A stretch of DNA of 32,000 nucleotides from Candidatus Methylomirabilis limnetica (GCF_003044035.1 NZ_NVQC01000017.1:183290-215289), one strand, 5' to 3'. Counted from the stretch's first letter, positions 14,404 through 31,952 are shown. A program made the numbers and translations. The notes: a model not told the origin generated them from the letters alone.

Positions 14404-14748
14404 TCACATCAGGTCCCCGAGCGGCCCGAGCGACAGGTTGAGGTCGTCCTCGGCGAGGCCGAAGTGTGCCCGGAGTTCCACCATCTTCTCCTCCAGCCGG
14501 ATGAAGGTCACCCCCATCCGCTCGATCTCCTCGGAGGTGAGGGAGCCCCCCTCCATCCTTCGAAGGGCCTGACGCTCGAGAAGCTTTCTGAGGAGTTCGA
14601 TGAGGGTGAGCACGAGCTTGGCCAGCCCCTGCTCGACCTTCTCAGGGTCGGCGTTGATCCGTCTCGGCAGGGCCTGGGTGAGCTGCTCCAGCTCCCCCTC
14701 AAACTCCGCCAGAGAGCTCTCAGGCGCCGAGAGTGTCTTTGGTTTCAT
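14404..14748 (-). CDS. gvpK: Gas vesicle protein GvpK
   Basis: RINADPEKVEQGLAKLVLTLIELLRKLLERQALRRMEGGSLTSEEIERMGVTFIRLEEKMVELRAHFGL..DDLNLSLGPLGDLM is the conserved GvpK core. I chose the start at the internal Met (MKPKT, 14748), giving a 29-nt overlap with the upstream gvpF/L gene. The ORF track extends to 14844. Confidence 0.85.
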   Translation of the reverse strand: MKPKTLSAPESSLAEFEGELEQLTQALPRRINADPEKVEQGLAKLVLTLIELLRKLLERQALRRMEGGSLTSEEIERMGVTFIRLEEKMVELRAHFGLAEDDLNLSLGPLGDLM

Positions 14749-15448: not shown

Positions 15449-15451
15449 GGC

Positions 15452-15661
15452 TCACTCCTCGACGCTCTTAACACCCCATTCCCTAGCCGTTTCCACAGAG
15501 CAGAGGAGGAGCCGGAGACCAACATAGATGAGGTCCACATCGGCTACGGATAGGGTCACATCCCCCGCTACCACGACGCCCTTGTTGAGGAGGCGGTCCA
15601 GCGTCTCGAGGAGCGTGACCTGCCGTTCCAGGCTGGAAGCAGGCCGGCCGTTATCCTTCAT
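15452..15661 (-). CDS. Short GvpA-family paralogue (GvpM/GvpS-like)
   Basis: The core is TLLETLDRLLNKGVVVAGDVTLSVADVDLIYVGLRLLLCSVETA, the GvpA/J/M alpha-beta-beta-alpha core. I set the start at Met 15661 (69 aa), just overlapping the upstream gene end. The ORF track extends to 15733. Confidence 0.75.
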   Translation of the reverse strand: MKDNGRPASSLERQVTLLETLDRLLNKGVVVAGDVTLSVADVDLIYVGLRLLLCSVETAREWGVKSVEE

Positions 15662-16454
15662 CGTCAAGCCTCGGGACAAAGTGGTATGGTGGCCAGGGGC
15701 CCGAGACAACGAGCCTGAAGGCTTCTTCGGCATGGCTCTGGTTCCACTGCTCCACCCCGGAGAGGAGGTCCTCCACTCCCTCCCGCCTCACGAGACAGGC
15801 CAGATTAAGCACGATCCTCTCCCCCTCTCTGGCCTCGGGGAGGATGGAAGGATACTCCACCAGCTCCACCACTTTCCCCCGGAGGGCCTCCAGCGCCTGA
15901 CTGGCAAGCGCATCTTCACGCTCCTGGGATTTCGTCGAGGCGCTCTCCTCGATTTTTCTCTTGAGGAAGAATGCCAGCCCGGGCGGTTTAGTGCTTGCCT
16001 CGCGGGCCAAGGCAAGGAGCGCCGCATCGTTCTTGAGCACGGCGGCTCGAAGGGCCGTCCGGTCCGCGAACCCCTTCACGCCCCACTCGACCTTATCTCT
16101 CAGGAACTCCAGGGCCTCTTGGATGCGCCGAGTATTCCTCCGAATGACCGACCGGATCGTCCCCGCGTCAAGGAAGATAGTGCCAAACCTCATCGGGAGA
16201 AGCGGACCCGTGGCCAGAGCCGACTCCACGATCGACTCGTGAAGGCGCACTTTCTCCTCCAGCCAAGAGGGGTCCTCCAGGTTGCGGCGGAGAGCCTCCT
16301 CCCCGAACTCGGTCAGGGGGACCGGGCTGGACAGTGCCACGATCCCGTTCTCGGCGATGAGGCTCAAAGGAGAGTGCCCGTCGATTCCCATCATTGGCGG
16401 CAGGTCTCCGTGGGGGGAAAAAGCATAGAGGTACCAGCCAATCTCGGAAGGCAT
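15651..16454 (-). CDS. GvpL/GvpF-family gas vesicle protein (paralogue 4)
   Basis: WYLYAF..., LLPMRFGTIF, KVEWGVKGF and the C-terminal VSGPWPPYHFV. The start at 16454 forms an ATGA overlap with the upstream stop. The ORF track extends to 16475. Confidence 0.85.
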   Translation of the reverse strand: MPSEIGWYLYAFSPHGDLPPMMGIDGHSPLSLIAENGIVALSSPVPLTEFGEEALRRNLEDPSWLEEKVRLHESIVESALATGPLLPMRFGTIFLDAGTIRSVIRRNTRRIQEALEFLRDKVEWGVKGFADRTALRAAVLKNDAALLALAREASTKPPGLAFFLKRKIEESASTKSQEREDALASQALEALRGKVVELVEYPSILPEAREGERIVLNLACLVRREGVEDLLSGVEQWNQSHAEEAFRLVVSGPWPPYHFVPRLDDEG

Positions 16455-17068
16455 CAGCGCTCCTTTGCGTCCCACAGTGGGAGCCGATCGATGAGAAACT
16501 CCACCTGGATTCCCTCTGGCAGGAGCCGATCCACTTCGTGCATCATCCCCAGGAAGAGGAGAGCCACTTCACCCTCCTCCAGGGTCTCGGCAATCCGCTG
16601 GGCGATGAAGGTGTCCCGCGCCTTCAGGATCTCCGCGCTCTCAGCAGCGTAGCTCCGCTTGGCCTCTTCCCGCTCGGCGTCTGTCTGGGCCTCGGTGATC
16701 TGCTTAACGTGGGCGTACTCTCGAAGTAAGAGCTCTGGTGACTCGGTCCCAATCAGCTTCGCCCCCTTGTCAACCAGCTCAAGGACGATCTGGTAGTTCT
16801 TACTCCCCTGGGCTGCCACACCCCGCGCAATCTCCAGCTCTTTCCCCGAGACGGGCAGGCCGTCCTGATAGATCCTGACCCGCTCCCACGGGAGATTCCT
16901 GATCAGGAGCTTCGCCCTGATCCCCTCCCAGACATCATCAATGACCCGTCGGCTCCGCTCCCAGCTTTCGACCCCGAATCGTCTGATGGACTCCTGCCGG
17001 AGCGCCTCCGACTTGGACCCCATATCCGCCATGGTGTGAATGATGGGGACGTAGATGAGCCGCCTCAT
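16454..17068 (-). CDS. Conserved-looking hypothetical protein embedded in the gvp operon (no family recognised)
   Basis: 204 aa from MRRLIYVPIIHTMADMGS..., starting 4 nt after the CheY stop (translational coupling). It has no TM segments or signal peptide. There is a weak, unverified resemblance to the TraB/GumN/ChaN fold (N-terminal IHT, C-terminal LLFLGMMHEVDRLLPEG). Confidence 0.55.
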   Translation of the reverse strand: MRRLIYVPIIHTMADMGSKSEALRQESIRRFGVESWERSRRVIDDVWEGIRAKLLIRNLPWERVRIYQDGLPVSGKELEIARGVAAQGSKNYQIVLELVDKGAKLIGTESPELLLREYAHVKQITEAQTDAEREEAKRSYAAESAEILKARDTFIAQRIAETLEEGEVALLFLGMMHEVDRLLPEGIQVEFLIDRLPLWDAKER

Positions 17069-17072
17069 CGCG

Positions 17073-20540
<3,468 letters not shown>

Positions 20541-20544
<4 letters not shown>

Positions 20545-21056
20545 GCGCTCTTGCCGGCCTTAGCGACAGTGACCTCCAGGATGCCGTTCCGGTAGGAGGT
20601 CTTCAGCGATTCCTGCTTTCCCTTGGCAGGGAGGAGAATCTCTTTGCTGTACTTCCGGTCCTTGCCCTCGGCGGAGATGGTGAGAATGTCATCTTTCAGC
20701 TCTACCCGGACGTCACCGGTATCCACTCCGGGCATCTCGGCAATCACTCGGATGGCCTCGTTCTCATCGAAGACGTCTACCAGCGGCTCCCGCACCTCCT
20801 CGACCACGGCCCCCGCTTCGCCCTTCTTGATGTTGCCGAAGGTCTCGACGGTGGGTTCGCCCCCCAGGCCGACCTTGACGTTGAAGCCGTACACTCCTCT
20901 CAGATCTTTAAGCCGCCCTTTCCCCCTGAGCTCCCCCGTGCGAGTCGTCTCGGTCTTCCCCTCCGCCTCCATCTCCTTGAGGAGCTCGATGAGGTCGCCA
21001 ATTCCCTTGAAGAGGTCGCCGAGGCCGAATCCCGCTCCACCTTTTCGCTCTGTCAT
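20541..21056 (-). CDS. Hsp20/alpha-crystallin-family small heat-shock protein (GvpH-like position)
   Basis: The alpha-crystallin domain reads VIAEMPGVDTGDVRVELKDDILTISAEGKDRKYSKEILLPA...YRNGILEVTV. I set the start at Met 21056 (MTERKGG), preceded by GGGAGGAAG. The ORF track extends to 21104 and would overlap gvpJ. Confidence 0.85.
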
Positions 21057-21072
21057 ATCTTCCTCCCATGCC

Positions 21073-21366
21073 TTACCCGCCGAGGCGGGCCTCAAGTCGG
21101 TCAAGCCGCTCCTTGAGTTGATGGTTCTCCTCTTCCAGGACCCTGGCCTTCGAGGAGAGGGCGGGGTCGCTCTGCCACCAGTCGATTCCCATCTCCTTGG
21201 CCTTCTCCACCGAGGCGACCAGGAGCCGGATCTTGATGGTCAACAACTCGACGTCGGCGAGGCAGATCTTGATGTCGCCGGCGATGACGATCCCCTTGTC
21301 GAGGACCCGTTCCAGGATGTCAGCCAGGCTGGTGGTCTGGATGCTGTGGGGGATGTTCTGTGGCAT
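21073..21366 (-). CDS. gvpJ: Gas vesicle protein GvpJ (GvpA-family paralogue with a C-terminal coiled-coil extension)
   Basis: SLADILERVLDKGIVIAGDIKICLADVELLTIKIRLLVASVEKAKEMGIDWW is the GvpA/J core with the GvpJ-typical GIDWW. The tail is charged and helical (LEEENHQLKERLDRLEARL). Confidence 0.85.
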   Translation of the reverse strand: MPQNIPHSIQTTSLADILERVLDKGIVIAGDIKICLADVELLTIKIRLLVASVEKAKEMGIDWWQSDPALSSKARVLEEENHQLKERLDRLEARLGG

Positions 21367-21375
21367 GTCGTCCCC

Positions 21376-21570
21376 CTACCGTCCCACTCTGGCCGGCTCG
21401 ACCCTCGCCCCGCAGGACGGACAGAACTTGTAGTCATCCTTGTAGATGTACCGCCACGTTCCCCCGCACTCGGGGCATCGCCGTGTTAACGGCTCCCCGC
21501 ACTTCGTGCAATGCTTGAGCGCCCCCCACGTCGTCTCCCCACACCCCGGACACTTGAATGACCCTACCAT
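21376..21570 (-). CDS. Double zinc-ribbon protein
   Basis: 64 aa from MVGSFK, with four CxxC pairs: CPGC...CTKC...CPEC...CPSC. I set the start at Met 21570, 5 nt after the gvpG stop. The ORF track extends to 21603. Confidence 0.6.
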   Translation of the reverse strand: MVGSFKCPGCGETTWGALKHCTKCGEPLTRRCPECGGTWRYIYKDDYKFCPSCGARVEPARVGR

Positions 21571-21574
21571 AGCG

Positions 21575-21907
21575 TTACACCTCCCCTTCATGCGGGGGCC
21601 CACCGCTGCCAGTCACGGCATCGCCCCCACCGGTCTCCGCAGGGCCTGGCACCGCCTCACCTCCCGCCAACTCCACCTCTTCGTCGGCCTGCCGGACGGC
21701 ATTGAGCCTCGCCTCCCATTCCGCTGCTTGCACAGTGTACTCCGCCTCGCCGATCTCGTCCATCTCGTAGAGGAGTTGGAGTTCCAGGAGCTTTTCCTGG
21801 ATGTACCCCTCATCGTTCTGCTCCCGGTCGGCCATCTCGTGGATCTTCTCGAAGACGCCGATGAGGCCCTTGAAGGGGAGCGCGATGAGATCGTCAATGA
21901 GGAGCAT
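21575..21907 (-). CDS. gvpG: Gas vesicle protein GvpG
   Basis: MLLIDDLIALPFKGLIGVFEKIHEMADRE...IQEKLLELQLLYEMDEIGEAEY matches the conserved GvpG N-terminus and the EL...E.GEI..EEY motif. AGGAGAGG SD. Confidence 0.8.
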   Translation of the reverse strand: MLLIDDLIALPFKGLIGVFEKIHEMADREQNDEGYIQEKLLELQLLYEMDEIGEAEYTVQAAEWEARLNAVRQADEEVELAGGEAVPGPAETGGGDAVTGSGGPPHEGEV

Positions 21908-21918
21908 GAATTCCTCTC

Positions 21919-22662
21919 CTAGACCTGAATGACCAGGTTCACGAAGTTGAAGGGGGGGAACCCCCCCACATACTTGAACCTGACCATCTCCCGATACCGC
22001 TCAGCCAGCTCGTCCATTCTCCGATCAAAGGCCGCCTCCTGGTCCCGGTCTATCAGGAAGGCCGCATTCATGATCATCCGCTCCCCCAGGAGCCGATTGG
22101 TCAGGCGGAAGTCGTGACAGGCCCCCTTCAGCGCCTCCACGATCTCCTCCCGGACTCTATCCTTCTCGACCTTAAGGGCCGCCTCCACCATCCTCCCAAC
22201 CTCGACAAGCTGCCAGTGGGCCTGCTGGGGAGGCAGTTTGGCGATGGCCTCTTTCCGCCTCCGGATCTCCCCGTATCGCTCGAGAATCTCTTGGTATATG
22301 AGCGTTTCGTTGAAGATCGCCTTCACCCCCACCTCCACCTTTCCGCGCATCCGCTCCAGGAGGCCCCTGAACTCGACATACTCCCGCTCCAGGATGGCCC
22401 GCACCCTCGCTTCGTTCTCGGCAATAGTGCAGAATCGGGCGGGCAGGACAGTATGGCATTTGAAGACGGCCTCAATGGCCCGCTCGTGAACCAGCGAGTT
22501 CTCCCGAGAGACGGGATAGCGCATGACGGGGGAGTCGCTCACGATGGCTGCAATGTCGCGATACGCGATGGCGGTCAACTCATCATCCCGGCCGCCGATT
22601 CCTAAAAGGCCGAAGCTCTCCTCTCGAGCCTCATCCGTGACGCAATAGATGTACTTTCCCAT
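21919..22662 (-). CDS. GvpL/GvpF-family gas vesicle protein (paralogue 3)
   Basis: From MGKYIYCV...: VLPARFCTI, KVEVGVKAIF and the C-terminal YVGGFPPFNFV. I set the start at Met 22662. The ORF track extends to 22713, overlapping the upstream gene. Confidence 0.85.
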   Translation of the reverse strand: MGKYIYCVTDEAREESFGLLGIGGRDDELTAIAYRDIAAIVSDSPVMRYPVSRENSLVHERAIEAVFKCHTVLPARFCTIAENEARVRAILEREYVEFRGLLERMRGKVEVGVKAIFNETLIYQEILERYGEIRRRKEAIAKLPPQQAHWQLVEVGRMVEAALKVEKDRVREEIVEALKGACHDFRLTNRLLGERMIMNAAFLIDRDQEAAFDRRMDELAERYREMVRFKYVGGFPPFNFVNLVIQV

Positions 22663-22681
22663 AGAGGAAATCCCTTCTGAG

Positions 22682-23434
22682 TCACTCGTCAGGGTGGAGG
22701 ATGATGTTGACAAAGTTGTAAGGGGGGACTGGCCCCACGTAGGCGAACTTCACGCGTTCCCGGTATCGAAGGGACAGCCGCTCCATCTGGTCGTCGAACT
22801 CCTTCTCCCTGGCCCGATCCACCAGGAATGCAGCGTTGAGGAACATCCTGTCGCCGACGGTCGCGTTGAGACGGTGCTCCGCAGCCAGACGCCTCAATAC
22901 CCAGAGGATCTGCTCTCCCTCCCCCTCCTTCTTCGCCTCCAGGGCGGCCTGGACCATCTTGCCGATGGCGATCCGCTGAGGATGGGTCTGACGGGACGGC
23001 TGCCTGGCGATCTCCGCCTTCAGATGCTTAATCGCCTCGTTCTCATCCACGATCTCCTGGAAGAGGAGATCCATCTCCCGCCAGAAGGCCTTCACCCCCA
23101 GCTCCACCTTCCCGTCCAGGTCTCGCAGGAGATGTTTCAGTTCCTGGTACCGCCGCTCCAGGAGCTGCCGGATCTCCTCAGCGTTCTGGGCGACAGTGCA
23201 GTATCTGACCGGGAGGACAGTATGCTCGTTCATGACTCGCTCCAGTACCCGCTCATGGGCCAGGAGGTTCGCCTTGCTGACCTCATACTTGCGCAAGGGT
23301 GCAGTACTCATGACCGCGCTGAGATCCCGGTAGGCGATGGTCTCGACCTCCCGGCCGCCCAGGCCGATGGGGCCGAAGTTCCTTTCCTCGTTGGTCCCGA
23401 TGATCGCATACAGGTACTTCCCCTCCTCACGCAC
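22682..23434 (-). CDS. GvpL/GvpF-family gas vesicle protein (paralogue 2)
   Basis: GKYLYAIIG, VLPVRYCTV, KVELGVKAFW and YVGPVPPYNFV. The GTG start overlaps the upstream stop by 8 nt. Confidence 0.85.
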   Translation of the reverse strand: MREEGKYLYAIIGTNEERNFGPIGLGGREVETIAYRDLSAVMSTAPLRKYEVSKANLLAHERVLERVMNEHTVLPVRYCTVAQNAEEIRQLLERRYQELKHLLRDLDGKVELGVKAFWREMDLLFQEIVDENEAIKHLKAEIARQPSRQTHPQRIAIGKMVQAALEAKKEGEGEQILWVLRRLAAEHRLNATVGDRMFLNAAFLVDRAREKEFDDQMERLSLRYRERVKFAYVGPVPPYNFVNIILHPDE

Positions 23435-24479
23435 CGGCGGGCTCCTGAGACAATTGAAAGAGTTTTACTGCCACAGTGTCCAGGACGTCTGGCGCGCGAA
23501 AGGATGAGCCCACCTGGCTGTATTCCCCCAGAAGCCGGTAGGCCCGCGTCACCGCCTCGAATGCGCCGTTGGCCTTCTGGCCGACCTTGCCCCCATCGGA
23601 GATAAGGTCTGGATGGCACTGCTGGACGAGCCGCCGGTAGGCCTCCTTGGCATCCTGAAGGGTGGCCTGTTCCCCCAGTTCCAAGAGCCGCCGCGCGGAG
23701 TCAATCTCCTCAAACTCGAATGACCTGACCTCAACGGTGGCAAAACTGTATGGGGGAAGTGGCCCCACGCAGCGAAAATCGATGGCGTTGTCGTATCGGT
23801 TGTTCAGCCGCTCCAGAGCCTTGCCGACTTCTCCTTCCCTGTCCCTGTCCACCAAGAAGGCGGTGTTCAGGATCATTCGATCGTCCAGAAGAGCATGAGG
23901 GCAGAGGCCGTGGGCCAAGGGCTTGAGGGCTAGGGCGATCTCAGCGCCCAGGGCCTCCCGTCGCTGATCCAGCCGGACCTTGACCATCTGACCGACTCTG
24001 ATCCGTTCTTCCGTGGTCTCCTGCGGGGACCGGTCCGCGATTGCGGCCCTGTTCTGCCTGATCTCCGGCTCTTCGCCGATCTGCCGTAACACCGAAATGA
24101 GGTCGCGCCACTGGGCCACCAGGTTGAGCTCAATCTTCCCCTCCATAGCCTCCAGGGCGGCCGTAAGCTGGGGGTAGCCTGACTCCAGGATCTTCCGCAC
24201 CCGGGCCTCATCCCGAGCCATAGTCCCGAACTTCACGGGTACCACTGTCTGGCGCTTCATGACCTGCTCGAGGACGACCTGATGGGTGAAGAGGTATGGG
24301 ATGACCTCCTCCTTCTTCATGGACTTGTAGGCCCGGATAGGAGTGAGGCTGACGAGAGCTGTCAGACCGCGATGGCAGACGTCTGAGACCTGACGCCCAT
24401 CGAGGCCGATCAGGCCGGAGTCTACCTGCACGCCATTCCCGAGAACACAGTAGAGGTGGAGGGCTTCCATAATTATCAT
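23427..24479 (-). CDS. GvpL/GvpF-family domain fused to a C-terminal DnaJ J-domain
   Basis: The N-terminal roughly 255 aa read LHLYCVLG, VVPVKFGTM, KIELNLVAQW and CVGPLPPYSFATV. The C-terminal part, LELGEQATLQDAKEAYRRLVQQCHPDLISDGG...AFEAVTRAYRLLGEY, has an intact HPD tripeptide. The start at 24479 forms an ATGA overlap with the zinc-finger gene stop. Confidence 0.85.
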   Translation of the reverse strand: MIIMEALHLYCVLGNGVQVDSGLIGLDGRQVSDVCHRGLTALVSLTPIRAYKSMKKEEVIPYLFTHQVVLEQVMKRQTVVPVKFGTMARDEARVRKILESGYPQLTAALEAMEGKIELNLVAQWRDLISVLRQIGEEPEIRQNRAAIADRSPQETTEERIRVGQMVKVRLDQRREALGAEIALALKPLAHGLCPHALLDDRMILNTAFLVDRDREGEVGKALERLNNRYDNAIDFRCVGPLPPYSFATVEVRSFEFEEIDSARRLLELGEQATLQDAKEAYRRLVQQCHPDLISDGGKVGQKANGAFEAVTRAYRLLGEYSQVGSSFRAPDVLDTVAVKLFQLSQEPAGA

Positions 24480-24877
24480 CCCTTCGCTTGGACGAGTGCC
24501 TGGACAACGCCCTTGCCGCGGCACGCCAGGCAGGGGAGCTTGCTGTTGGCCTCAATCCCGCTGCCCCGGCACTGGCGGCATTCGGTGAAGGGCTCTTTGA
24601 CGGGGACGACCCCTTTGCCCCGACAGACAATGCAAGTAATGTTGGTCTGGGGATTGGCCTCACCCCTTCCACCGCAATAGGCGCAGATGATAGCCGGTGG
24701 GTCAACTTCCACACTGCCTGCACCCCGGCAGACGGGGCATTGGATCCCCTTCGAGCGGGGGAGGACTCCGGTCCCGCGACAGAAGGCGCAGGAGAAGATC
24801 CTCCCCGGGACGACCTCTCGCCCCCTCTTTGCGGCCGTCCCCCTCCGCCAGGAGCCCCACTCCATCAGCTTCATCAT
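24476..24877 (-). CDS. DnaJ-type cysteine-rich zinc-finger protein (six CxxCxGxG repeats), paralogue 1
   Basis: 133 aa with CAFCRGTG, CPVCRGAG, CAYCGGRG, CIVCRGKG, CRQCRGSG and CLACRGKG. This is the CxxCxGxG repeat of the DnaJ central domain, present six times with no J-domain or C-terminal client-binding domain. Confidence 0.8.
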   Translation of the reverse strand: MMKLMEWGSWRRGTAAKRGREVVPGRIFSCAFCRGTGVLPRSKGIQCPVCRGAGSVEVDPPAIICAYCGGRGEANPQTNITCIVCRGKGVVPVKEPFTECRQCRGSGIEANSKLPCLACRGKGVVQALVQAKG

Positions 24878-24906
24878 GATACCCTATCCCCTCCCCAGTG
24901 ATCTCA

Positions 24907-25227
24907 TCAGTAGTTCATGGAGAACGTTTTCCACTTCTTCGCGGGGGCGTTCCGCGCTGTTGCCGTTTCCCCTGCATTGCTGGGGCGTTCTGACTGAGCC
25001 GGCCGCTCCAGGTCCTCCATCTGCCGATGGATATCAGAGAGACGCTTCTGGATTCCCTGGCTGCGCTTGGCCAGGAGGGCCGCCTCCTTGTCGAGCCGCC
25101 CCTTCTCCACCCGCAGCATGTAGAGCTCGAGGTAGGTGGACCCCTGCCTCCGGGGTATGGCGCGCTGGCCGGTGGTGTGCAGGCTCCGGATGTCCCGGAG
25201 CCCAGTGACGTCCGTGACCCCTCTCAT
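24907..25227 (-). CDS. Hypothetical coiled-coil protein in the gvp operon
   Basis: 106 aa with a GGGAGG SD. The central predicted helix is STYLELYMLRVEKGRLDKEAALLAKRSQGIQKRLSDIHRQMEDLE. I recognise no family. Confidence 0.5.
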   Translation of the reverse strand: MRGVTDVTGLRDIRSLHTTGQRAIPRRQGSTYLELYMLRVEKGRLDKEAALLAKRSQGIQKRLSDIHRQMEDLERPAQSERPSNAGETATARNAPAKKWKTFSMNY

Positions 25228-25240
25228 GGCTGCCTCCCGA

Positions 25241-25408
25241 TCACCGGGCGCTCTCGCGCGCGGAGAGTAGAAGCTGCTTCTTCTTGCTGGCCCCCACCAC
25301 CTTCAACTCCACCAGTTGGCCGGCCTTGAGCCCCACTTCCAGCCGGATGTTGTTGGGGATGGAGAGCTTCCCATCGGCGTCTACCTTTGCAAAGGCTCGC
25401 ATCAGCAT
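25241..25408 (-). CDS. Unlisted 55-aa AbrB/SpoVT/MazE-fold (swapped-hairpin) protein
   Basis: Below the 60-aa ORF-track cutoff. A GGAGGTGG SD lies 6 nt before the ATG at 25408. The translation is MLMRAFAKVDADGKLSIPNNIRLEVGLKAGQLVELKVVGASKKKQLLLSARESAR*. It matches the SpoVT-AbrB signature (k.d..Gr.sIP..iR..lgl..Gd.vel) and exactly fills the gvpN/next-gene gap. Confidence 0.6.
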   Translation of the reverse strand: MLMRAFAKVDADGKLSIPNNIRLEVGLKAGQLVELKVVGASKKKQLLLSARESAR

Positions 25409-25423
25409 CAGAGCCACCTCCCC

Positions 25424-26344
25424 TCAGCAGTATTGTTTGACGATCTTCTTCACCAGCTCCCTGACCTTGGCCTGATTGCTCTTGCTCCCCACCCGACTCG
25501 TCTCCGAGGCCAGAATGTCCTGGCAGACCTGCCGGAAGACTCCACTGGACCCCTTGACGTGGCCATTGAGCACCGTGAGGGATCTGGCGATCATGATCGC
25601 GCCGCGGACGGTGGGAGAGAATTCACACGCTCCCGACTCCCGGAGGGCCCGGACGACCTTGACGATCTTCTCCGCCTCCTTCCGGGGGAGACCGGACTTA
25701 GCCTGGGTGATGGCGGCCTCCGTTTCCTCATCGAAGTGGTCCAAGTCCATGGTGATCATTCGGTCGCGGAGGGCATCCTGGCTCCGGTGGACGCCGGCGT
25801 ACTCCTCGGGGTTCGAGGTGAAGATCGCCGTGAAGTTCGGATCGACCCTCAAGTAGGTCTCCTCCCCCCCACGACGGATGGGGAGGTCCAGCATCCGCTC
25901 CTGGAGAATGGCGAGAAAGATGTTGTTGGCCTCGGGCCGGGAGCGGGTGAACTCGTCGTAGATGAGGGTGAAGCCGTACTTGCAGGCAATGGTGAGGCGG
26001 TTATCGACCCACCGCTTGACCATGTCTTCCTCGACCTTCAGGACCCGGGAAACGAAGCGGTCAATGACCTTCCTCAGGTGATAGCCGTACTCTCCTCCCA
26101 CCAGGTCCGAGGTGGTGTACTCTTCGTCGCCGTGGATTAGCACGACAGGACGTTCGAGCTTCGAGGCCACATGGAGGGCCAGGGTGGTCTTGCCCGTGCC
26201 GGAGGCCCCCCGGAAGTGAATCGGGAAGCCCGCCTTGATATAGCCCATGGCCCGTTCGGTGAGGTCTTTGACATGCTTTGTTTCCACAAAATCCGGCAAC
26301 GGGGCAGGCTCGATGACCGTGCTGAGTTCCTCTATACCTCTCAT
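25424..26344 (-). CDS. gvpN: Gas vesicle protein GvpN (AAA+ ATPase)
   Basis: 306 aa. FVETKHVKDLTERAMGYIKAGFPIHFRGASGTGKTTLALHVA...RPVVLIHGD and Walker B LIYDEFTRS match the characteristic GvpN sequence. AGGAGG SD. Confidence 0.9.
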   Translation of the reverse strand: MRGIEELSTVIEPAPLPDFVETKHVKDLTERAMGYIKAGFPIHFRGASGTGKTTLALHVASKLERPVVLIHGDEEYTTSDLVGGEYGYHLRKVIDRFVSRVLKVEEDMVKRWVDNRLTIACKYGFTLIYDEFTRSRPEANNIFLAILQERMLDLPIRRGGEETYLRVDPNFTAIFTSNPEEYAGVHRSQDALRDRMITMDLDHFDEETEAAITQAKSGLPRKEAEKIVKVVRALRESGACEFSPTVRGAIMIARSLTVLNGHVKGSSGVFRQVCQDILASETSRVGSKSNQAKVRELVKKIVKQYC

Positions 26345-26353
26345 GGATACCTC

Positions 26354-26692
26354 CTATACAGGGAGCGCAGGACGGCGGGGGATCGCGCCTCTCCCACGGC
26401 AGTGAGTGCATGGAAGGCCATTCCCAGCGGTGCGCCCGCTTCCCCGGCAGTCAGGGCACGCTTCTCCGGGTCCCCCGAATCGCACGACTCCCTTTCCCCC
26501 GCAGACCTGGCACGTGACCCTCATGCCATAGGGCTGGATCCCGCTCCCGCGACAGTAGACGCACATCCCATTGGGCTCCTCGACCATGACCGTACCTTTT
26601 CCCCCGCAGACCTGGCACCTGGACAGGCGCGAGAGGCAGTTAAAGGGGTCGGACCCCTTCCCCTGGCAGAAGGCGCACCGGATTGCCGTCAT
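26354..26692 (-). CDS. DnaJ-type cysteine-rich zinc-finger protein (six CxxCxGxG repeats), paralogue 2
   Basis: 112 aa with CAFCQGKG, CQVCGGKG, CVYCRGSG, CQVCGGKG, CPDCRGSG and CTHCRGRG. Confidence 0.8.
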   Translation of the reverse strand: MTAIRCAFCQGKGSDPFNCLSRLSRCQVCGGKGTVMVEEPNGMCVYCRGSGIQPYGMRVTCQVCGGKGVVRFGGPGEACPDCRGSGRTAGNGLPCTHCRGRGAIPRRPALPV

Positions 26693-27287
26693 CTCTTCCC
26701 CCGTTTACTCTCCCGGCGCAGCACCGGGATTGAATGGCTCTGAGGGTGGCCTTGAACTCTTTGACCCTGACGGGGCCACCGTTGGACAGAAGCCCCTGCA
26801 AGGCCCGGGTTAGCTCCTCCTGCTCGCCTTGGAACTCGGCCAGGAGGGTCTTGACTTCCCGCTCCCGCTCTTCACGCCTGGCCGTGATCTCTTCCAGCAG
26901 TTCCTTGAGACCGCCGACCCGTTGCGCTTCACCCCTGGCCAGGGCTTCCCGCAGGGTGGCGGCCAGTGTCCTCTGTTCATGGAGGTAGTGCTTCATCGTC
27001 CCCCTGACCGCTTCCTCCCGCTCCCGTTGGTGGGCGAGGACCCCCTCCATCATGGCATCGAAGTCCCGCCTCCGGAGGGAGGCGGCCCTGGCTAGGGCCT
27101 CCTTGAGCTGGGCCCGCATCTCTTCTCGCTGGCTTCGAAACGTTCCCAGCATCTCGTGGGTGGACTCGACGATCTGCTCCACCGACGAGACCCTGGCCTC
27201 GTAGGAGGCGATGACCTCCCGGGCCAGGAGCGCCATCTCCTCCCCCCTTCCCATCGGGCTTACCTGAACGCTTCTCTTTCCTCTCAA
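26640..27287 (-). CDS. Arg/Glu-rich coiled-coil protein with an internal ~50-aa duplication (GvpC-analogue candidate), paralogue B
   Basis: The 215-aa ORF has a TTG start at 27287; ATG alternatives are at 27254 and 27236. The internal repeat pairs QLKEALARAASLRRRDF...HQREREEAV with TLREALARGEAQRVGGL...ARREEREREV. The N-terminal third is paralogous to 27298-27792. The 3' end overlaps the next gene by 53 nt. Confidence 0.55.
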   Translation of the reverse strand: MRGKRSVQVSPMGRGEEMALLAREVIASYEARVSSVEQIVESTHEMLGTFRSQREEMRAQLKEALARAASLRRRDFDAMMEGVLAHQREREEAVRGTMKHYLHEQRTLAATLREALARGEAQRVGGLKELLEEITARREEREREVKTLLAEFQGEQEELTRALQGLLSNGGPVRVKEFKATLRAIQSRCCAGRVNGGRDDGNPVRLLPGEGVRPL

Positions 27288-27297
27288 CTCTTCCCTC

Positions 27298-27792
27298 TCA
27301 TCTGCCGCCGGCGCGCTTCCCCGCCATCGTGGCGGTCATATTCCGCCAATGACCAGCCATGGCCTCCTGCTCCCGGCGAAAGCCAGCCAGCATGCCTCCG
27401 ACCTCCTGGGCCCGCTGCTCGCTCCCGCGGTAGAAGCGATTCATGAGTTCGGCGGTTTCCCCACTTCTCTCCTCCTGGCGAGCCCGAATACCCTGGTGCA
27501 TCGCCCGGAAGTCTCTCAGCCGGGTAGACTCGGAAGTGCTGAGGAATCGCTTGAGGTCCGCTGCCTTCCGCCTGAGGTCGTGGCGAAACTCCTTCAGCTT
27601 TGCCGCGGTCTCATCCCTCAGCGCCGCCACCCTTGCCACTCGTGTGTCGAACGAATTGACGATCTCCTGGGCCAGATCCCGCATATCCTCGGCCAGTGTC
27701 ATTGTGCCGACCCTCCCTTCTTGCGTCATCCCCTCCTGGGGGAAGAAGTGAACCCTTTCAGGAGCTCTCTTTCCTTTTTTCTTCGATCCCAT
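27298..27792 (-). CDS. Arg/Glu-rich coiled-coil protein (GvpC-analogue candidate), paralogue A
   Basis: LAQEIVNSFDTRVARVAALRDETAAKLKEFRHDLRRKAADLKRFLSTSESTRLRDFRAMHQGI aligns with LAREVIASYEARVSSVEQIVESTHEMLGTFRSQREEMRAQLKEALARAASLRRRDFDAMMEGV of the next gene. I set the start at ATG 27792 (GGGAGGGG SD). The ORF track extends to a GTG at 27912 that has no SD. Confidence 0.5.
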   Translation of the reverse strand: MGSKKKGKRAPERVHFFPQEGMTQEGRVGTMTLAEDMRDLAQEIVNSFDTRVARVAALRDETAAKLKEFRHDLRRKAADLKRFLSTSESTRLRDFRAMHQGIRARQEERSGETAELMNRFYRGSEQRAQEVGGMLAGFRREQEAMAGHWRNMTATMAGKRAGGR

Positions 27793-27928
27793 GTTCCCCT
27801 CCCAGGGCGTTAACACGCCCCACGTGTCCTCAGGTTGGACTAGAGGGAGATCCTGGCGAGGCATACTCTCTGCGGTTGTCCGCTCAAGGATGCCCCGGCA
27901 GACACCCCTCACTGGTTCCAGGCCGACC

Positions 27929-28144
27929 TTACGCCGGTGCCGCCGCTGTAGCGGTCAGGCCGATGGCCTCAGCATACTTCAGGTACGTCTCGACGGAGGC
28001 CACCACCACCCGGGCCTCGATAGCCAGGAGCTCGATCCCAACCAGGGAGACGCGCACCCAGGCATCGATGACCACACCCTTGTCCAGGATCCGATCGATC
28101 ACCTCAACCAGACTTGACGACGCGATTGCCTTCTCCACTGCCAT
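27929..28144 (-). CDS. gvpA: Major gas vesicle structural protein GvpA
   Basis: [63 protein letters not shown] is near-identical to the universal GvpA consensus. An AAGGAGGTGA SD lies 6 nt before the ATG at 28144. The ORF track starts at a TTG at 28150. Confidence 0.95.
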
Positions 28145-28173
28145 TGTCAATCACCTCCTTTCGGTTTTTCCCC

Positions 28174-28205: not shown

Positions 28206-28580
28206 CTATACGCCCTCCCTGATGGCACGCTTCAGGAGGGTCGTGACGTGATGGAGTTCAAAGGGCTTGCTGATGAAGCCCTGGAAATCGCCTCTCCTTA
28301 TCCCCTCCACGATTGGCTGATCCTCCTCGTAGTGGTAACCCGAGATCATCAGGATTGGCAGCCGGGGAACAAGCCGCCGGATGACGTGAGAGACCTCGAT
28401 ACCGCTCATGCCGGGGAGTTTCACGTCGATGATGGCAGCGTCAAACCTCCGCCCTTGCACCTGACGCATCGCATCCTCCCCACGGTAGACGTGGGTAATG
28501 TGGACCCCCTCGTCCTTCAGGCCTATCTGTAGGGCCCAACAAATGTCCTTTTCGTCATCCACGACGAGGACCTCAAGCAT
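28206..28580 (-). CDS. Stand-alone CheY-like response-regulator receiver domain
   Basis: 124 aa with VLVVDDEKD, the phospho-acceptor AAIIDVKLPGMSG, S (LMISGY) and K (FISKPF). The ATG overlaps the kinase stop by 8 nt. Confidence 0.85.
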   Translation of the reverse strand: MLEVLVVDDEKDICWALQIGLKDEGVHITHVYRGEDAMRQVQGRRFDAAIIDVKLPGMSGIEVSHVIRRLVPRLPILMISGYHYEEDQPIVEGIRRGDFQGFISKPFELHHVTTLLKRAIREGV

Positions 28581-30078
28581 CTGAACCCTCCGCAGGCAGG
28601 ATGACAGTGAACGTCGAGCCCTTCCCTACCTCGCTCTCGACTCGGATCGTTCCCCCATGCTGGTGAACGAGGCTGTAGGCGATAGAGAGACCCAGCCCCG
28701 TCCCTTGCCCCACTGGCATGGTGGTGAAGAAGGGATCGAAGAGGCGGGAAAGGTGCTGCTCAGGGATGCCACGCCCGCTGTCTGCGAATCTGATCTCGAT
28801 TGCCGGCGGCAGAGTCGCCGGGGCAAGTCGGCTCTCGATGGCGAGCCGCCCTCCCTCTTCCATAGCGTAGTAGGCGTTCATGATGATATTCATGAACGCC
28901 TGCTGGAGCTGATTCTTGTTGCCCTTCACCTTCGGAAGCGCCGGGGACAACTGCTTGACGATCTCGATAGACTGAAGCGAGATCTGATGACCGATGAGGG
29001 AGAGCGTTTCCTCGACAGCGCTGTTCACATCCACTAGCTCGGACAGCCCCTGTGAAGGTCGAGCGAACCTGAGGAGGGTCTCGATGATGGCGGCGGCCCG
29101 AGCGGCGGCGAGGCGGATCTTCTCCGCGCACTCCTGCAGAAGCTCGGGGTCGTTCCCCTTTTTCAGGAGAATCTGAGCAGCCGAAGCGGTGATGGCCAAA
29201 GGATTCCGAATCTCGTGGGCGATGCCGCCAGCCATCTCTCCGAGGCTGGCCATCTTGGCTGATTGGATCAATTGGAGCTCCAGGCGCTGCTTTTCTGTCA
29301 GGTCGCGCCCCACCCCTACCAGGGCCACCACCCGACCGCCCTCCTCCTTCATAGCCGAAAAGCGCCAGGAGATGAGGCGCCTCTCGCCACCCTTCGCCTG
29401 TATCCCCGTCTCCATCTCCTGGGACTTCCCCTCCCTGGCGAGGTGGATGAGGAGGGCCTGAAGCTGAGGCCGATCGGGCTCGGTGAAGAAATCGGCGAAC
29501 TGCCTCTTGGTCACCTCCTGAGAGGAGAAACCCAGGATCCGCTGAGCAGCGCTATTCCAGGTCATCACTGCGCCGGCCGAATCCAGGGAAACAATCAGGT
29601 CGTTGGCGCTCTCCACTACGCTGGCCAAATGGCGCTCAACTTCTCGAACCCTCTTGCCCAGACTCTTCTTCTCCGTGACGTCGTCCATGAAGAGCATGAC
29701 GCTTTCTACTCGCCCCGCCTCGTCCTTCAGGGGTGTCAGACTATAAAAGTAGATGCGGGCGGCCAGTCCCGGAGCTCGATACTCCATCTCGCCTCCCTCA
29801 AAAGGCTGCGCGGTCAGGCAGACTGTCCGGGCCCGCCCCTCAAGGTCGGTGTAGTGGAGGATCGCAGGAGGAAAAATCTCGTTGAGCCTCTTCCCCAGCA
29901 CCTCCCTCTCTTCCTTCCGCATTTTGAGAAGAAAGTTTTCGTTGGCAAAGATCACCCTCAGGACTGTATCCATGACCAGGATGGAGGAGGGAATGTGAGC
30001 AACGATCTCCTGTTCCAGATTCGCGGCGGGAGCTTGCGTGGCGGTCATTTCACAAAGGGTCGTATTCTGCGGTTTCAC
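28573..30078 (-). CDS. Soluble PAS-domain sensor histidine kinase (NtrB-like HisKA/HATPase_c)
   Basis: 501 aa with a GTG start preceded by AAGGAG at 6 nt, and no TM segments. It has two PAS-like regions. The H-box is MAGGIAHEIRNPL, the N-box NIIMNAYYAM, the G1 box DSGRGI and the G2 box GTGLGLS. Confidence 0.9.
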   Translation of the reverse strand: MKPQNTTLCEMTATQAPAANLEQEIVAHIPSSILVMDTVLRVIFANENFLLKMRKEEREVLGKRLNEIFPPAILHYTDLEGRARTVCLTAQPFEGGEMEYRAPGLAARIYFYSLTPLKDEAGRVESVMLFMDDVTEKKSLGKRVREVERHLASVVESANDLIVSLDSAGAVMTWNSAAQRILGFSSQEVTKRQFADFFTEPDRPQLQALLIHLAREGKSQEMETGIQAKGGERRLISWRFSAMKEEGGRVVALVGVGRDLTEKQRLELQLIQSAKMASLGEMAGGIAHEIRNPLAITASAAQILLKKGNDPELLQECAEKIRLAAARAAAIIETLLRFARPSQGLSELVDVNSAVEETLSLIGHQISLQSIEIVKQLSPALPKVKGNKNQLQQAFMNIIMNAYYAMEEGGRLAIESRLAPATLPPAIEIRFADSGRGIPEQHLSRLFDPFFTTMPVGQGTGLGLSIAYSLVHQHGGTIRVESEVGKGSTFTVILPAEGSDA

Positions 30079-30140
30079 AGCGAACTCCTTTTTCCCTGAA
30101 CAGAAGCCCTGGCCTTGCCACTGCGTCCACTACTATTACT

Positions 30141-30156
30141 AGCAAGCGTGGTGCCA
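30141..30156 (-). promoter_or_regulatory. Sigma-54 (RpoN) -24/-12 promoter driving the kinase-regulator-gvpA transcription unit
   Basis: The minus strand reads TGGCACcacgcTTGCT, a perfect match to TGGCAC-N5-TTGCW. It lies about 60 nt upstream of the kinase GTG and downstream of a gene for an NtrC-type sigma-54 activator. Confidence 0.75.
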
Positions 30157-30304
30157 GACCTGAGGCCCCCTGCACCCTGCTTCGAGAGAGCACAACAACT
30201 GGTTGCAGCCAACGCAACGAGACGCCAGATGAAGGGGATACCTAGCAGGGGCGTTAGGCAGTGTGTGGCAAGCAACCTGGTGAGAGTCTGGAGGGGACGC
30301 CAGA

Positions 30305-30340
30305 GCTATGGCGGAGACTCCATGGCATGGATGCCATAGC
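30305..30340. promoter_or_regulatory. Candidate enhancer (UAS) for the NtrC-type activator
   Basis: The palindrome ATGGCAT-GG-ATGCCAT (30322-30337) is nested in the outer inverted repeat gctatggc...gccatagc (30305-30340). Its centre lies about 175 bp upstream of the -24 element, a typical bEBP distance. Confidence 0.35.
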
Positions 30341-30413
30341 GGAGCGCTCAGCGGTCAGCTATCGGCTGTGAGTCTAGGAGCTATATATCGCGTCATAAAT
30401 CGCAACAATGGAC

Positions 30414-30505
30414 GTCATTCCCGCGAAGCTTGTCCCCGCATGTTTTAAGCGGGGAGCGGGAATCCATCGCTGCAAGACTGGATTCCGGATCAAGTCCGGA
30501 ATGAC
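30414..30505. repeat. REP-like palindromic element (gtcattcc...ggaatgac class)
   Basis: gtcattcccgc...tccccgc-atgttttaa-gcgggga-gcgggaatcc is followed by ggattccgga-tcaag-tccggaatgac. It has the same terminal gtcattcc/ggaatgac signature as 7802-7889. Confidence 0.5.
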
Positions 30506-30560
30506 AAAACGCCCGAGACTTATGTCGTGATATTAGCAAGGAGGAGTGGAGAGTCTGGGG

Positions 30561-31952
30561 TTACCGGAACTCCGGAGCCGAAATGCCATACCGCTTCATC
30601 TTGATGTGAAGCGTCTTGTAGTCGGTCCGAAGGAGCCGGGCCGCCTCACTCTTGTTCCCACGGGTCGCTTGCAGGGCCTGGTGGATCACCTGCCGCTCCG
30701 CCTCGGCGGCGGCCTTATCGCTCGCCTCTTTTAAGGAGAGACCCGCCGATACGGGGCCAGGCTCTATGGCCGAAGCTGCACCAGGGTCTTTGGCGCCCAG
30801 GGTCGGGAGGTGTTCCGGCCGAATGAGGCCCGGACTCATCAGGACAGCCTGGCGAATCACGTTCCTGAGCTCCCGTACGTTACCGGGCCAGGGATATTGG
30901 AGAAGGATCTGGGCTGCCTCGTCCGATATCCCGCGGACGGGCCGCTTGAACTCCATACTGGCTTCTTCAAAAAAGCGCTTGGCCAAGTAGGGGATGTCTT
31001 CCGGCCGCTCCCGAAGGGGTGGCAGGCTGATCGTGAATTCATTCAGGCGGTAATAGAGGTCTTGCCTGAACCGGCCTGCTCGCATCTCTTTCTCCAGCGG
31101 GACATTGGAGGCCGCGATGATGCGCACGTCCACGGGGCGCGCGCGTTTCCCTCCCAGGAGCTGCACCTGTCGCTCCTGGAGCACCCGCAGGAGCTTTGAC
31201 TGGGTACTCAGGGGGAGGTTGATGATCTCGTCGAGGAACAGGCTTCCTCCTTCGGCAAGTTGAAAATGGCCCTCTTTCTTCCTATCCGCGCCGGTGAAGG
31301 CGCCTTTCTCGTGGCCGAACAGCTCCGACTCGATCAGGGTCTCGGGGATGGCCCCGCAGTCCACGGCGATAAAGGGTTGCTGGTGGCGGGCGCTCTGCTG
31401 ATGGATGGCCCGGGCCAGCAGCTCCTTGCCAGTCCCCGTCTCCCCCTGGAGCAGGATCGTCAAGGGAGATCGGGCCACCAGATTGACCTGCTGGATGATT
31501 TGCTGGACATGCTGACTCGGGCCCATCAGCTCTCGGAGGGAACCGCCCTTGGCGAGCTGATTCCGCAGCGACTCCACCTCGGCCAGGAGCGCCTGCTGCT
31601 CCAGTGCCCGTCGTATGGTGAGGATGACATCATCGTTTTGAAACGGCTTGGTGATGTAGTCGTAGGCTCCGAGCCGCATGGCAGACACTGCTGTGAAGAT
31701 TTCCCCACAGGCAGTCAGGATGATTATCGGCACGTGAGGGTCTATCTTCTTTATCTCCGCGAGGGTCTCCATTCCTCCGAGATTCGGCATCTTGAGGTCG
31801 AGGAGGATCGCTGAGGGCGCGTCCTGCCGGACCCTTTCCAGGGCGATCGCCCCGTCCTCCGCCGTAACCACTTCAAGTCCCTCGGCTTCGAGAATACCGC
31901 TGAGGAACCAGCGCATGTCGGGCTCGTCATCCACCACCAGGACCTTAGGCAT
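30561..31952 (-). CDS. NtrC-family sigma-54-dependent response regulator (receiver + AAA+ + Fis-type HTH)
   Basis: 463 aa. The receiver has VLVVDDEPD and [12 protein letters not shown]. The AAA+ domain has [11 protein letters not shown], the sigma-54 contact loop GAFTGA and FLDEI. The C-terminal HTH is [26 protein letters not shown]. Confidence 0.9.

Follow-up and report, generated by a model that had tools for sequence, protein, structure and literature searches.

Does the gas-vesicle (gvp) gene cluster of Candidatus Methylomirabilis limnetica, a bacterium of the phylum NC10, encode its own link to the Hsp70 chaperones? The question is raised by a stretch of 32 kb of this genome (GCF_003044035.1 NZ_NVQC01000017.1:183290-215289, referred to as the window), in which the gvp cluster occupies approximately positions 14404-28150 of the minus strand. 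One gene of the cluster, designated here gvpF-J or the fusion, joins a GvpF/L body to a C-terminal J-domain, and lies next to a gene for a small protein made of CxxCxGxG zinc-finger repeats. The sequence-only reading of this locus had described the pair as a DnaJ split into pieces, in which GvpF/L would serve as the client-binding module and couple the host Hsp70 to gas-vesicle assembly. The analysis reported below leads us to regard gvpF-J as probably a specialised J co-chaperone resembling those of class C (type III), with the GvpF/L domain as its client-binding module. The zinc-finger proteins form a distinct accessory family.

Both domains of the fusion product were recognised by Pfam (limits in Table 1). 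The GvpL_GvpF match spans profile positions 2-244 of 245, and the DnaJ match (PF00226), over residues 265-318, scored 32.1 bits for a gathering cut-off of 27.8. The strings quoted in the earlier reading, CVGPLPPYSFATV, AKEAYRRLVQQCHPDL and AYRLLGEY, were all found in the product and the codons of the His-Pro-Asp (HPD) motif were read directly, which bears out the claim of a GvpF/L body followed by a J-domain with an intact HPD. A phmmer search of all PDB sequences with the last 102 residues returned J-domain proteins only (best E value 3.6e-5). The AlphaFold model, computed with 64 homologues, had a mean predicted local distance difference test score (pLDDT) of 91.8 and a predicted template modelling score (pTM) of 0.84, the junction and both domains being confident. 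In this model a strand (248-253) precedes helix I (256-265), helix II (274-288) and helix III (300-321), the HPD sits in the loop between the last two, and the J helices have pLDDT values above 90. With Foldseek, the first 245 residues matched the GvpF crystal structures 6l5d and 4qsg (E 5e-15 to 7e-14, target-normalised TM scores of 0.76-0.78), and the C-terminal part matched dozens of solved J-domains (probability 1.00, root-mean-square deviation (rmsd) 1.5-2.1 Å over 56-64 residues), including the E. coli DnaJ J-domain bound to DnaK (5nro_B). The predicted fold is that of a J-domain, albeit with a short and atypical helix IV. We concluded that the C-terminal region of the fusion is a bona fide J-domain. 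It is followed by an extension with the family consensus YCQ....SFR..DV.....V..L and high pLDDT; judging from the model, this tail would pack back on the GvpF sheet and hold the J-domain rigidly.

Conservation of the J-domain was then read from the homologues. The HPD is invariant in 119/119 fusion homologues and in 64/64 rows of the alignment. In the same 64 rows, the helix II and III positions R282, R/K283, Y/H281 and F307 are kept in 62, 54, 64 and 59 sequences, respectively; we take their equivalents in E. coli DnaJ to be K26, R27, Y25 and F47. Among distant members of the family, the mean pairwise identity of the J-domain (45.7%) equals that of the GvpF body (45.8%) almost exactly. Such conservation indicates that the functional residues of the J-domain are under selection.

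The product is 350 residues long when read from ATG 24479, and 347 when read from ATG 24470, the start annotated at NCBI, where a 347-residue protein of Ca. Methylomirabilis limnetica (P0001) is 100% identical to it and is named only "GvpL/GvpF family gas vesicle protein". Since ATG 24470 is preceded, 8 nucleotides (nt) upstream, by a Shine-Dalgarno-like AAGGGA and agrees with the N-termini of homologues, a spacing of 5 nt between the fusion and the upstream zinc-finger gene is at least as likely as the ATGA overlap initially described, which holds only if translation begins at ATG 24479. The two genes are tightly packed whichever start is used. At its other end, the TGA stop of the fusion overlaps with the GTG that opens the following GvpF/L gene (GTGCGTGA, 23434-23427), and two GvpL/GvpF genes (21919..23434, minus strand) follow the fusion in a series of start/stop overlaps.

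How widespread is this architecture? PF06386 occurs together with PF00226 in at least 119 protein clusters; these come from NCBI, JGI, ENA and Logan assemblies and reach down to 39% identity. A 150-residue query spanning the junction, compared with 1.84 billion representative proteins, gave 363 representatives (clustered at 50% identity) at E<=1e-10, and the best 150 matches align across both domains. When GTDB was scanned with one genome per species, 328 genomes contained a relative, and the best 80 of these 328 all encode the fusion (79 called by a test for the GvpF motif and the HPD, and locus L081 by the J-domain profile). With this profile, the fusion was found in 84 of the 88 sequences made up of the window and the related loci L001-L087. 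Fusion-bearing genomes span more than 20 phyla, among them NC10, Omnitrophota, Nitrospirota, Desulfobacterota, Planctomycetota, Chloroflexota, Actinomycetota, Zixibacteria, Aerophobetes, Bipolaricaulia, Verrucomicrobiota, Acidobacteriota and Patescibacteria. The chance that a frameshift or a mis-assembly joined gvpF to a separate J-protein gene, a risk that the earlier reading had raised, is negligible: the same single open reading frame (ORF) recurs in all these clusters and loci, across independent assemblies, the modelled junction is confident, and nothing was found in favour of an artefact.

A neighbour-joining tree was computed for 97 GvpL/F domains taken from 28 loci; in it, all J-bearing proteins (26/26) fall in one clade that has no J-less member inside. 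From this distribution and grouping, we conclude that the fusion is a single old invention, kept in hundreds of uncultured bacteria, and constitutes its own GvpF orthologue group. No NCBIfam model captures it (91 vs 350 bits for GvpF, 67 vs 200 bits for GvpL). The architecture is visible in precomputed Pfam annotations, the sources of which name a GvpL/GvpF protein only.

Comparison with characterised proteins places the fusion between two families. Its N-terminal 245 residues share fold and family with GvpF/GvpL (PF06386; 4QSG from Microcystis, 6L5D from Anabaena), as well as genomic company, the gene lying in a gvp cluster beside GvpF/L paralogues, gvpA, gvpN, gvpG, gvpJ and gvpK. The crystallised GvpF proteins, of 237-244 residues, stop shortly after a GPxPPYxF motif, whereas the fusion runs on into a beta-strand, the J-domain and a conserved C-terminal strand. 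The specialised J-proteins of class C, or type III, include HscB (with HscA and IscU), auxilin (with Hsc70 and clathrin) and DjlA. Like them, the fusion joins an HPD-containing J-domain to a targeting domain, without the glycine/phenylalanine-rich (G/F) region, the zinc finger or the C-terminal domains of DnaJ, and its presumed logic is also the delivery of one client class to Hsp70. It differs from them in having a GvpF fold as its targeting domain and a J-domain placed at the C-terminus, where two strands apparently clamp it; its presumed client is a shell or seeding protein of the gas vesicle. Outside the J-domain no sequence relationship to class C J-proteins was found, and the NCBIfam models DnaJ, DjlA and ActJ scored far below their cut-offs. 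Assignment to type I (class A) DnaJ was rejected, as GvpL_GvpF and DnaJ are the only domains present and the NCBIfam DnaJ models gave 15-24 vs 338-502 bits. We classify the protein as a class-C-like J-protein whose client domain is that of GvpF, and as a new GvpF orthologue group.

What could a J-domain do on a GvpF protein? In the canonical reaction, the HPD loop and the basic helix II of the J-domain dock ATP-bound Hsp70 and trigger hydrolysis, and Hsp70 clamps the client that is presented to it. On the GvpF side, a recent study (PMC11445434) identified GvpF as the primary, transient and chaperone-like binder of the shell protein GvpA2, and proposed that it acts as a chaperone. According to the same source, GvpF of H. 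salinarum binds helix alpha1 of GvpA, the GvpF-GvpA interaction is displaced by GvpG, and GvpL binds the GvpJ/S/K seeding proteins; binding of GvpA-family or accessory Gvp proteins is known for both GvpF and GvpL in B. megaterium and H. salinarum. Combining the J-domain mechanism with this published GvpF-GvpA2 binding, we propose that the GvpF body binds hydrophobic subunits of the GvpA family, or the GvpJ/S/K seeding complex, while the rigidly mounted J-domain would dock ATP-bound Hsp70 via its HPD loop and basic helix II. The ATP hydrolysis thus triggered would make Hsp70 clamp the GvpF-bound client, and the aggregation-prone shell protein would be kept soluble and/or handed over, then released during vesicle nucleation and growth. 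Both the client and the assembly step served are inferred here. The Hsp70 would be supplied by the gvp cluster itself in many relatives, and presumably by the housekeeping DnaK in Methylomirabilis; the two CxxCxGxG proteins would be separate accessory proteins rather than obligate subunits of the fusion.

Support for an Hsp70 partner came from sibling gas-vesicle clusters. Of the 84 fusion loci, 17 contain a co-oriented Hsp70 ORF, and so do 9 of the 25 that are well covered (at least 6 kb upstream and at least 8 kb downstream of the fusion). It stands at the distal gvp end, right after gvpK, a GvpL/F gene and a GvpS/A-like gene. Hsp20-like genes lie 3' of it, and in some loci further cluster genes were also found there, coding for the 230-residue protein (L068), ArsA (L057) or GvpL/F (L059). 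Because cluster genes also follow Hsp70 in these loci, the gene is part of the cluster rather than a mere neighbour. A second sample consisted of independent metagenome contigs anchored on gvpK, from a scan seeded with a J-less cluster. There, a co-oriented Hsp70 was observed 1-5 kb after gvpK in 19 of the 27 loci with at least 4 kb downstream, and the J fusion in 15 of the 18 with at least 8 kb upstream. The in-cluster Hsp70s are full-length proteins, with 640-755 bits across positions 1-592 of Pfam HSP70, and are DnaK-type, the best PDB match being Geobacillus DnaK 2v7y (E 8e-192). The segment R-I/L-I/V-NEPTAA, which holds the arginine contacting the HPD aspartate, is kept in 16 of 17. The sibling clusters thus lend weight to the proposed coupling of Hsp70 to gas-vesicle assembly. 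The other part of that claim, that the host Hsp70 serves here, stays a presumption: as the cluster in the window contains no Hsp70 gene, the partner must be encoded elsewhere, and we presume it to be the housekeeping DnaK.

Behind the in-cluster Hsp70 there is regularly an ORF of ~300-330 residues with only weak similarity to Hsp20 and no Pfam match (L035 19029-19973, with equivalents in L053, L057 and L059), and then a small Hsp20. No GrpE-like exchange factor could be recognised, which makes this ORF a candidate for the role of cofactor.

Several observations weigh against the Hsp70-adaptor model. Pfam and NCBIfam scans of the 32-kb window revealed no gene for Hsp70, GrpE or a canonical DnaJ, and the other NC10-type clusters (L003, L011) likewise have the fusion and lack an in-cluster Hsp70, so that the partner in this organism is an assumed one. 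The in-cluster Hsp70s are 47-62% identical among themselves and form no obviously separate clade by identity, which gives no support to a dedicated Hsp70 lineage; their identity to E. coli DnaK, 42-56%, is indicative only. J-less clusters with adequate coverage number only two (L086, L156), both without Hsp70, which is too few for statistics. The fusion is one of five GvpF/L paralogues in its cluster, and its Gvp client is a presumed one. Finally, helix IV (329-334) of its J-domain is short and atypical, and in the NC10 subgroup the J-domain is somewhat less conserved than the GvpF body (53% vs 63% identity) and the loop following the HPD is long.

Part of these observations could be explained if the J-domain were, in this lineage, a non-functional or structural remnant, left after loss of the cluster Hsp70 and serving only to stabilise GvpF. 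The absence of Hsp70 from the window and the lower identity of the J-domain in the NC10 subgroup would fit, as would the variability of the long loop after the HPD and the replacement of the usual HPDK/R by HPDL or HPDH. Yet the HPD and the signature residues of helices II and III are intact in every NC10-type homologue, and to our knowledge these residues are needed only for interaction with Hsp70. Moreover, bacteria as a rule encode a housekeeping DnaK, which can be used by any J-domain. We therefore consider a remnant very improbable.

A different role for a functional J-domain would be remodelling or uncoating. Hsp70 would then be recruited onto a GvpF/L scaffold, to strip GvpF/L from the shell protein or to dissolve the nucleation complex and let assembly go on, as auxilin and Hsc70 do on clathrin coats, or HscB and HscA on IscU; it would not be a holder of free GvpA. 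The apparently rigid mounting of the J-domain on GvpF (high pTM, conserved C-terminal strand) is consistent with such a role, the five GvpF/L paralogues could build a multi-subunit scaffold, and the CDC48-type and ArsA-type ATPases of the cluster suggest energy-dependent remodelling. The transience of the GvpF-GvpA contact, which GvpG displaces (PMC11445434), points in the same direction. All these parts, however, are shared with client holding, and both activities may coexist. As the principal function we judge remodelling rather unlikely, and retain the reading of gvpF-J as an Hsp70 adaptor through which a client would be held, handed over or released.

We turn now to the CxxCxGxG proteins. 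The gene adjoining the fusion codes, as described earlier, for a 133-residue protein in which exactly six repeats were counted (ZnF133), and the reported second six-repeat paralogue (ZnF112) was confirmed beside gvpN, ending 10 nt before it. Both scored above the cut-off of 32.7 bits for Pfam PF00684 (49.2 and 39.0 bits, respectively). The family comprises at least 107 protein clusters, and in an alignment of 53 members the 12 cysteines never vary, nor do most of the glycines in the six repeats. Because these cysteines, like the HPD of the fusion, are kept in every homologue, chance is no credible explanation for either motif; zinc binding would be expected from the invariant cysteines. A profile of the family matched the cysteine-rich domain of E. 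coli DnaJ (1exk) with an E value of 4.6e-11, and its other best PDB relatives were DnaJ/DNAJA zinc-finger domains and anti-TRAP. To judge from this homology, the ZnF proteins derive from the DnaJ cysteine-rich domain.

Their architecture is nevertheless unlike that of type I DnaJ. The J-domain of the fusion and the ZnF repeats are each homologous to the matching DnaJ module, but they are carried by separate polypeptides, and the G/F linker and C-terminal domains I and II are missing. In DnaJ, repeat 1 pairs with 4 and repeat 2 with 3 to form the zinc centres, and the V-shaped hairpin that results is an insertion within C-terminal domain I; in place of these four nested repeats and two centres, the ZnF proteins have six repeats in three tandem modules. 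The repeat period is ~35 residues (first cysteines at 30, 65 and 100), and the AlphaFold model of ZnF133 (pLDDT 86.3) consists of three tandem strand-flanked modules of two adjacent repeats each. Foldseek gave no global PDB match for ZnF133, and local ones only, to anti-TRAP (29 residues, rmsd 1.5 Å, probability 0.84-0.97), BSD2 (39 residues, rmsd 2.6 Å) and the DNAJA3 zinc finger; the best match to a DnaJ zinc finger, 2ctt, had an E value of 3.8e-3 and an rmsd of 21.7 Å. Each ZnF chain probably holds three tandem Zn(Cys)4 centres, each resembling the single centre of anti-TRAP.

Anti-TRAP (Bacillus RtpA; 2BX9, 3LD0) and the plant protein BSD2 (8ILB) are, like the ZnF proteins, small, J-less and made of CxxCxGxG repeats only. 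They have one or two modules, in contrast to three tandem modules in gvp contexts. Identification of the ZnF proteins with anti-TRAP, a protein of ~53 residues that regulates TRAP, was rejected: the NCBIfam RtpA model gave 40.9 and 38.4 bits for a cut-off of 65, and the context is gvp, not trp. With the Pfam Anti-TRAP model (cut-off 32), ZnF133 reached 38.1 bits over one 28-residue stretch, and ZnF112, at 28.4 bits, remained below. BSD2, which acts in Rubisco assembly, is a precedent for an assembly-chaperone role. By analogy, the ZnF proteins are most likely small zinc-dependent holdases or assembly chaperones.

Do these proteins work as pieces of a split DnaJ? According to this proposal, the J-bearing GvpF and one or both CxxCxGxG proteins would assemble as one multi-subunit co-chaperone, in which the J-domain activates Hsp70, the zinc centres lock the client, and GvpF replaces the C-terminal client-binding domains. 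Besides the homology to the DnaJ cysteine-rich domain, the gene order speaks for it: ZnF133 lies immediately upstream of the fusion in the window, and the same adjacency is seen in the close relatives L004 and L009, as well as in the distant L031 (Dehalococcoidia) and L033 (Actinomycetota). ZnF and fusion genes occur together in 17 of the 25 well-covered loci. All four ZnF homologues whose contigs were examined (4/4) sit in gvp clusters. Two of these four clusters (L085, L086), however, contain a ZnF gene and no J-domain within 10 kb on either side, as scanned with a J-domain hidden Markov model, and several fusion clusters (L002, L003, L011) have no ZnF gene. Among the 79 ZnF genes of the window and L001-L087, the gene immediately 3' is most often gvpN (22), followed by Hsp20 (12), a GvpA-like gene (10), the J fusion (5), a CDC48-type ATPase (4) and other labelled genes (gvpG, zinc-ribbon; 2), the remaining 24 being unlabelled. 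The three tandem modules, in place of a nested four-repeat hairpin, and the purely local structural similarity also argue against a reconstituted DnaJ.

An obligate pairing is ruled out by these contexts, scans and counts, and the notion of ZnF proteins as partner subunits of the fusion found no specific support; we regard the split DnaJ as improbable. Nor do the comparative data favour the redox-sensing role suggested for the ZnF proteins in the earlier reading. Because of the J-less ZnF clusters, the ZnF-less fusion clusters and the neighbour counts, the ZnF proteins are treated here as a distinct accessory family and not as dedicated partners of gvpF-J. That ZnF genes recurrently precede gvpN, Hsp20 and GvpA-like genes may mean that their products serve clients distinct from gvpF-J.

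Longer ZnF relatives exist as well. In some lineages they measure 262-384 residues, and those of Desulfobacteraceae (360-384 residues) combine six repeats with an N-terminal region of ~200 residues that has no domain match. A 488-residue ORF with 14 CxxCxGxG repeats (114 bits with Pfam) was found in a Phycisphaerales cluster (L053 2523-3986), and other expanded relatives at L042 13763-14881 and in L043, L061, L069 and L021. The exact sequences of ZnF133 (with three start variants) and ZnF112 were absent from a collection of 15 billion proteins, in which the neighbouring fusion is present, from NCBI. The two genes may be unannotated in the deposited genome, or annotated with another start.

The features of the window are listed in Table 1.

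Table 1. Features of the gvpF-J gene, the gas-vesicle cluster and its surroundings in the window (positions counted from the first letter of the window)
Feature	Coordinates	Strand	Evidence
gvpF-J fusion: GvpL/GvpF domain, J-domain and conserved C-terminal extension	23427..24479	-	Pfam, NCBI match
GvpL/GvpF domain of the fusion, residues 7-247	23739..24461	-	Pfam PF06386, 203 bits
J-domain of the fusion, residues 256-321	23517..23714	-	Pfam PF00226, PDB search, Foldseek
HPD codons, His289-Pro290-Asp291	23607..23615	-	Read directly
C-terminal extension after the J-domain, short helix 329-334 and strand 336-341	23430..23516	-	
ZnF133, six CxxCxGxG repeats, 133 residues	24476..24877	-	Pfam PF00684 (DnaJ_CXXCXGXG), 49.2 bits
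ZnF112, six CxxCxGxG repeats, 112 residues	26354..26692	-	Pfam PF00684, 39 bits
Response regulator, PAS histidine kinase and sigma-54-dependent activator, upstream of gvpA	28206-31952	-	
gvpA, major shell protein, first gene of the cluster	27929..28150	-	Pfam Gas_vesicle, 60.9 bits
Coiled-coil-like protein, 204 residues, directly after gvpA	27298..27912	-	Without significant family match
Coiled-coil-like protein, 215 residues	26640..27287	-	Without significant family match
gvpN, AAA+ ATPase	25424..26344	-	Pfam AAA_5
AbrB/MazE-like protein (weak similarity), 58 residues, after gvpN	25241-25417	-	
Protein without family match, 106 residues, after gvpN	24907-25227	-	
GvpL/GvpF paralogue	22682-23434	-	Pfam PF06386, 240 bits
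GvpL/GvpF paralogue	21919-22713	-	Pfam PF06386, 209 bits
gvpG	21575-21907	-	Pfam
Double zinc-ribbon protein	21376-21603	-	Pfam
GvpJ-like protein	21073-21366	-	Pfam
Hsp20	20541-21104	-	Pfam
ArsA/Get3-type ATPase	19588-20544	-	Pfam
CDC48-type double AAA+ ATPase, CDC48_N and CDC48_2 domains	17444-19636	-	Pfam
Response regulator / stand-alone receiver domain inside the cluster	17073-17447		
Conserved protein, 230 residues, without Pfam or NCBIfam match	16454-17146	-	
GvpL/F paralogue	15651-16475	-	Pfam/NCBIfam
GvpS/M-like protein	15452-15733	-	Pfam/NCBIfam
GvpL/F paralogue	14720-15448	-	Pfam/NCBIfam
gvpK, last gene of the cluster	14404-14844	-	Pfam/NCBIfam
Methyltransferase, next gene past gvpK, outside the cluster	13309-14145	+	

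The five GvpL/GvpF paralogues of the cluster, only one of which bears a J-domain, each scored 190-240 bits with Pfam, and a nearest-neighbour analysis showed that they have separate orthologues in other phyla. Base composition is even across the gvp cluster, which gives no sign of a recent insertion, and no tRNA gene was found in the window. Homologues of gvpN were recognised in related gvp loci with E values down to 1e-149. The regulatory genes upstream of gvpA also flank the related clusters L001-L003, and suggest that gas-vesicle expression is under sigma-54 control.

Other genes recur in related loci too. The 215-residue coiled-coil-like protein, the gene of which shares 53 nt with the beginning of ZnF112, has homologues that follow gvpA in other phyla; it and its 204-residue neighbour could be functional counterparts of GvpC. 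The AbrB-like gene and the 106-residue ORF are paired 3' of gvpN in loci of Desulfobacteraceae and Nitrospirota (L042, L057, L017). A conserved protein of ~230-250 residues travels with the cluster (L035 10987-11709, L042 10945-11709, L051 3375-4124, L057 10972-11709). In Desulfobacteraceae its gene comes directly after the GvpF-J gene and overlaps it, and this overlap suggests a functional link to the fusion. Two distinct GvpK subtypes were distinguished, one in the window, L003, L046 and L074, the other in L086, L035 and L053. The NC10-type GvpK terminates in ...GLAEDDLNLSLGPLGDLM, and the second subtype, with which the in-cluster Hsp70 is mainly associated, reads ...VRDGLDDIVDDVLD..NPERW.

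Hsp20, ArsA-type and CDC48-type genes were present in 25/25, 18/25 and 20/25 of the well-covered fusion loci, respectively. Together, Hsp20, the ArsA/Get3-type ATPase and the CDC48-type unfoldase point to an unusually chaperone-rich assembly pathway. It is quite possible, although less likely than not, that a large and mostly uncultured group of bacteria builds its gas vesicles with a dedicated, so far unrecognised Hsp70-centred chaperone system, which would comprise the GvpF J-adaptor, the triple-zinc proteins, the CDC48-type and ArsA/Get3-type ATPases and the Hsp20s. Hsp20/GvpH and ArsA homologues have been reported in gvp clusters with many GvpL/F paralogues, in Geobacter, Pelodictyon and Polaribacter (Castillo and Saier 2010, PMC2963123), and the cluster in the window shares its Hsp20 and its ArsA-type ATPase with them. 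The word "DnaJ" occurs 0 times in that paper, which mentions no J-domain, Hsp70, CDC48-type ATPase or CxxCxGxG protein. In the openly searchable full-text literature, subscription-only papers lying outside this scope, we found neither a J-domain nor an Hsp70 or CxxCxGxG protein described for gvp clusters, and the CDC48-type unfoldase likewise seems not to have been reported for bacterial gvp clusters in the literature searched.

The individual modules found here are familiar, and what they reveal in combination is a chaperone-rich type of gas-vesicle cluster that had not been described. Gas-vesicle biology has yet to explain, as one of its central questions, how the extremely hydrophobic GvpA stays soluble, is delivered and is inserted into the growing vesicle. 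The handling of GvpA also limits the heterologous expression of gas vesicles, for which, when they are used as acoustic reporters, proteotoxic stress is a known problem (PMC12848028). A J-bearing GvpF, with an Hsp70 encoded in the cluster in many lineages, offers a concrete mechanism, in which GvpF is an Hsp70 adaptor; this fits the recent proposal that GvpF chaperones GvpA (PMC11445434). If the dedicated Hsp70-centred system exists, it would provide the first defined ATP-driven step in the handling of GvpA, and nature itself would testify to GvpF as an adaptor for chaperones and not a structural part. Candidate parts for better assembly in engineered hosts are the fusion, the Hsp70 of the clusters and the triple-zinc proteins, and the catalogue of specialised J-proteins is extended to a prokaryotic organelle. 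Taken from the gene content and conservation described above, our results suggest that the building of gas vesicles in fusion-bearing lineages is an Hsp70-assisted process, so far undescribed.

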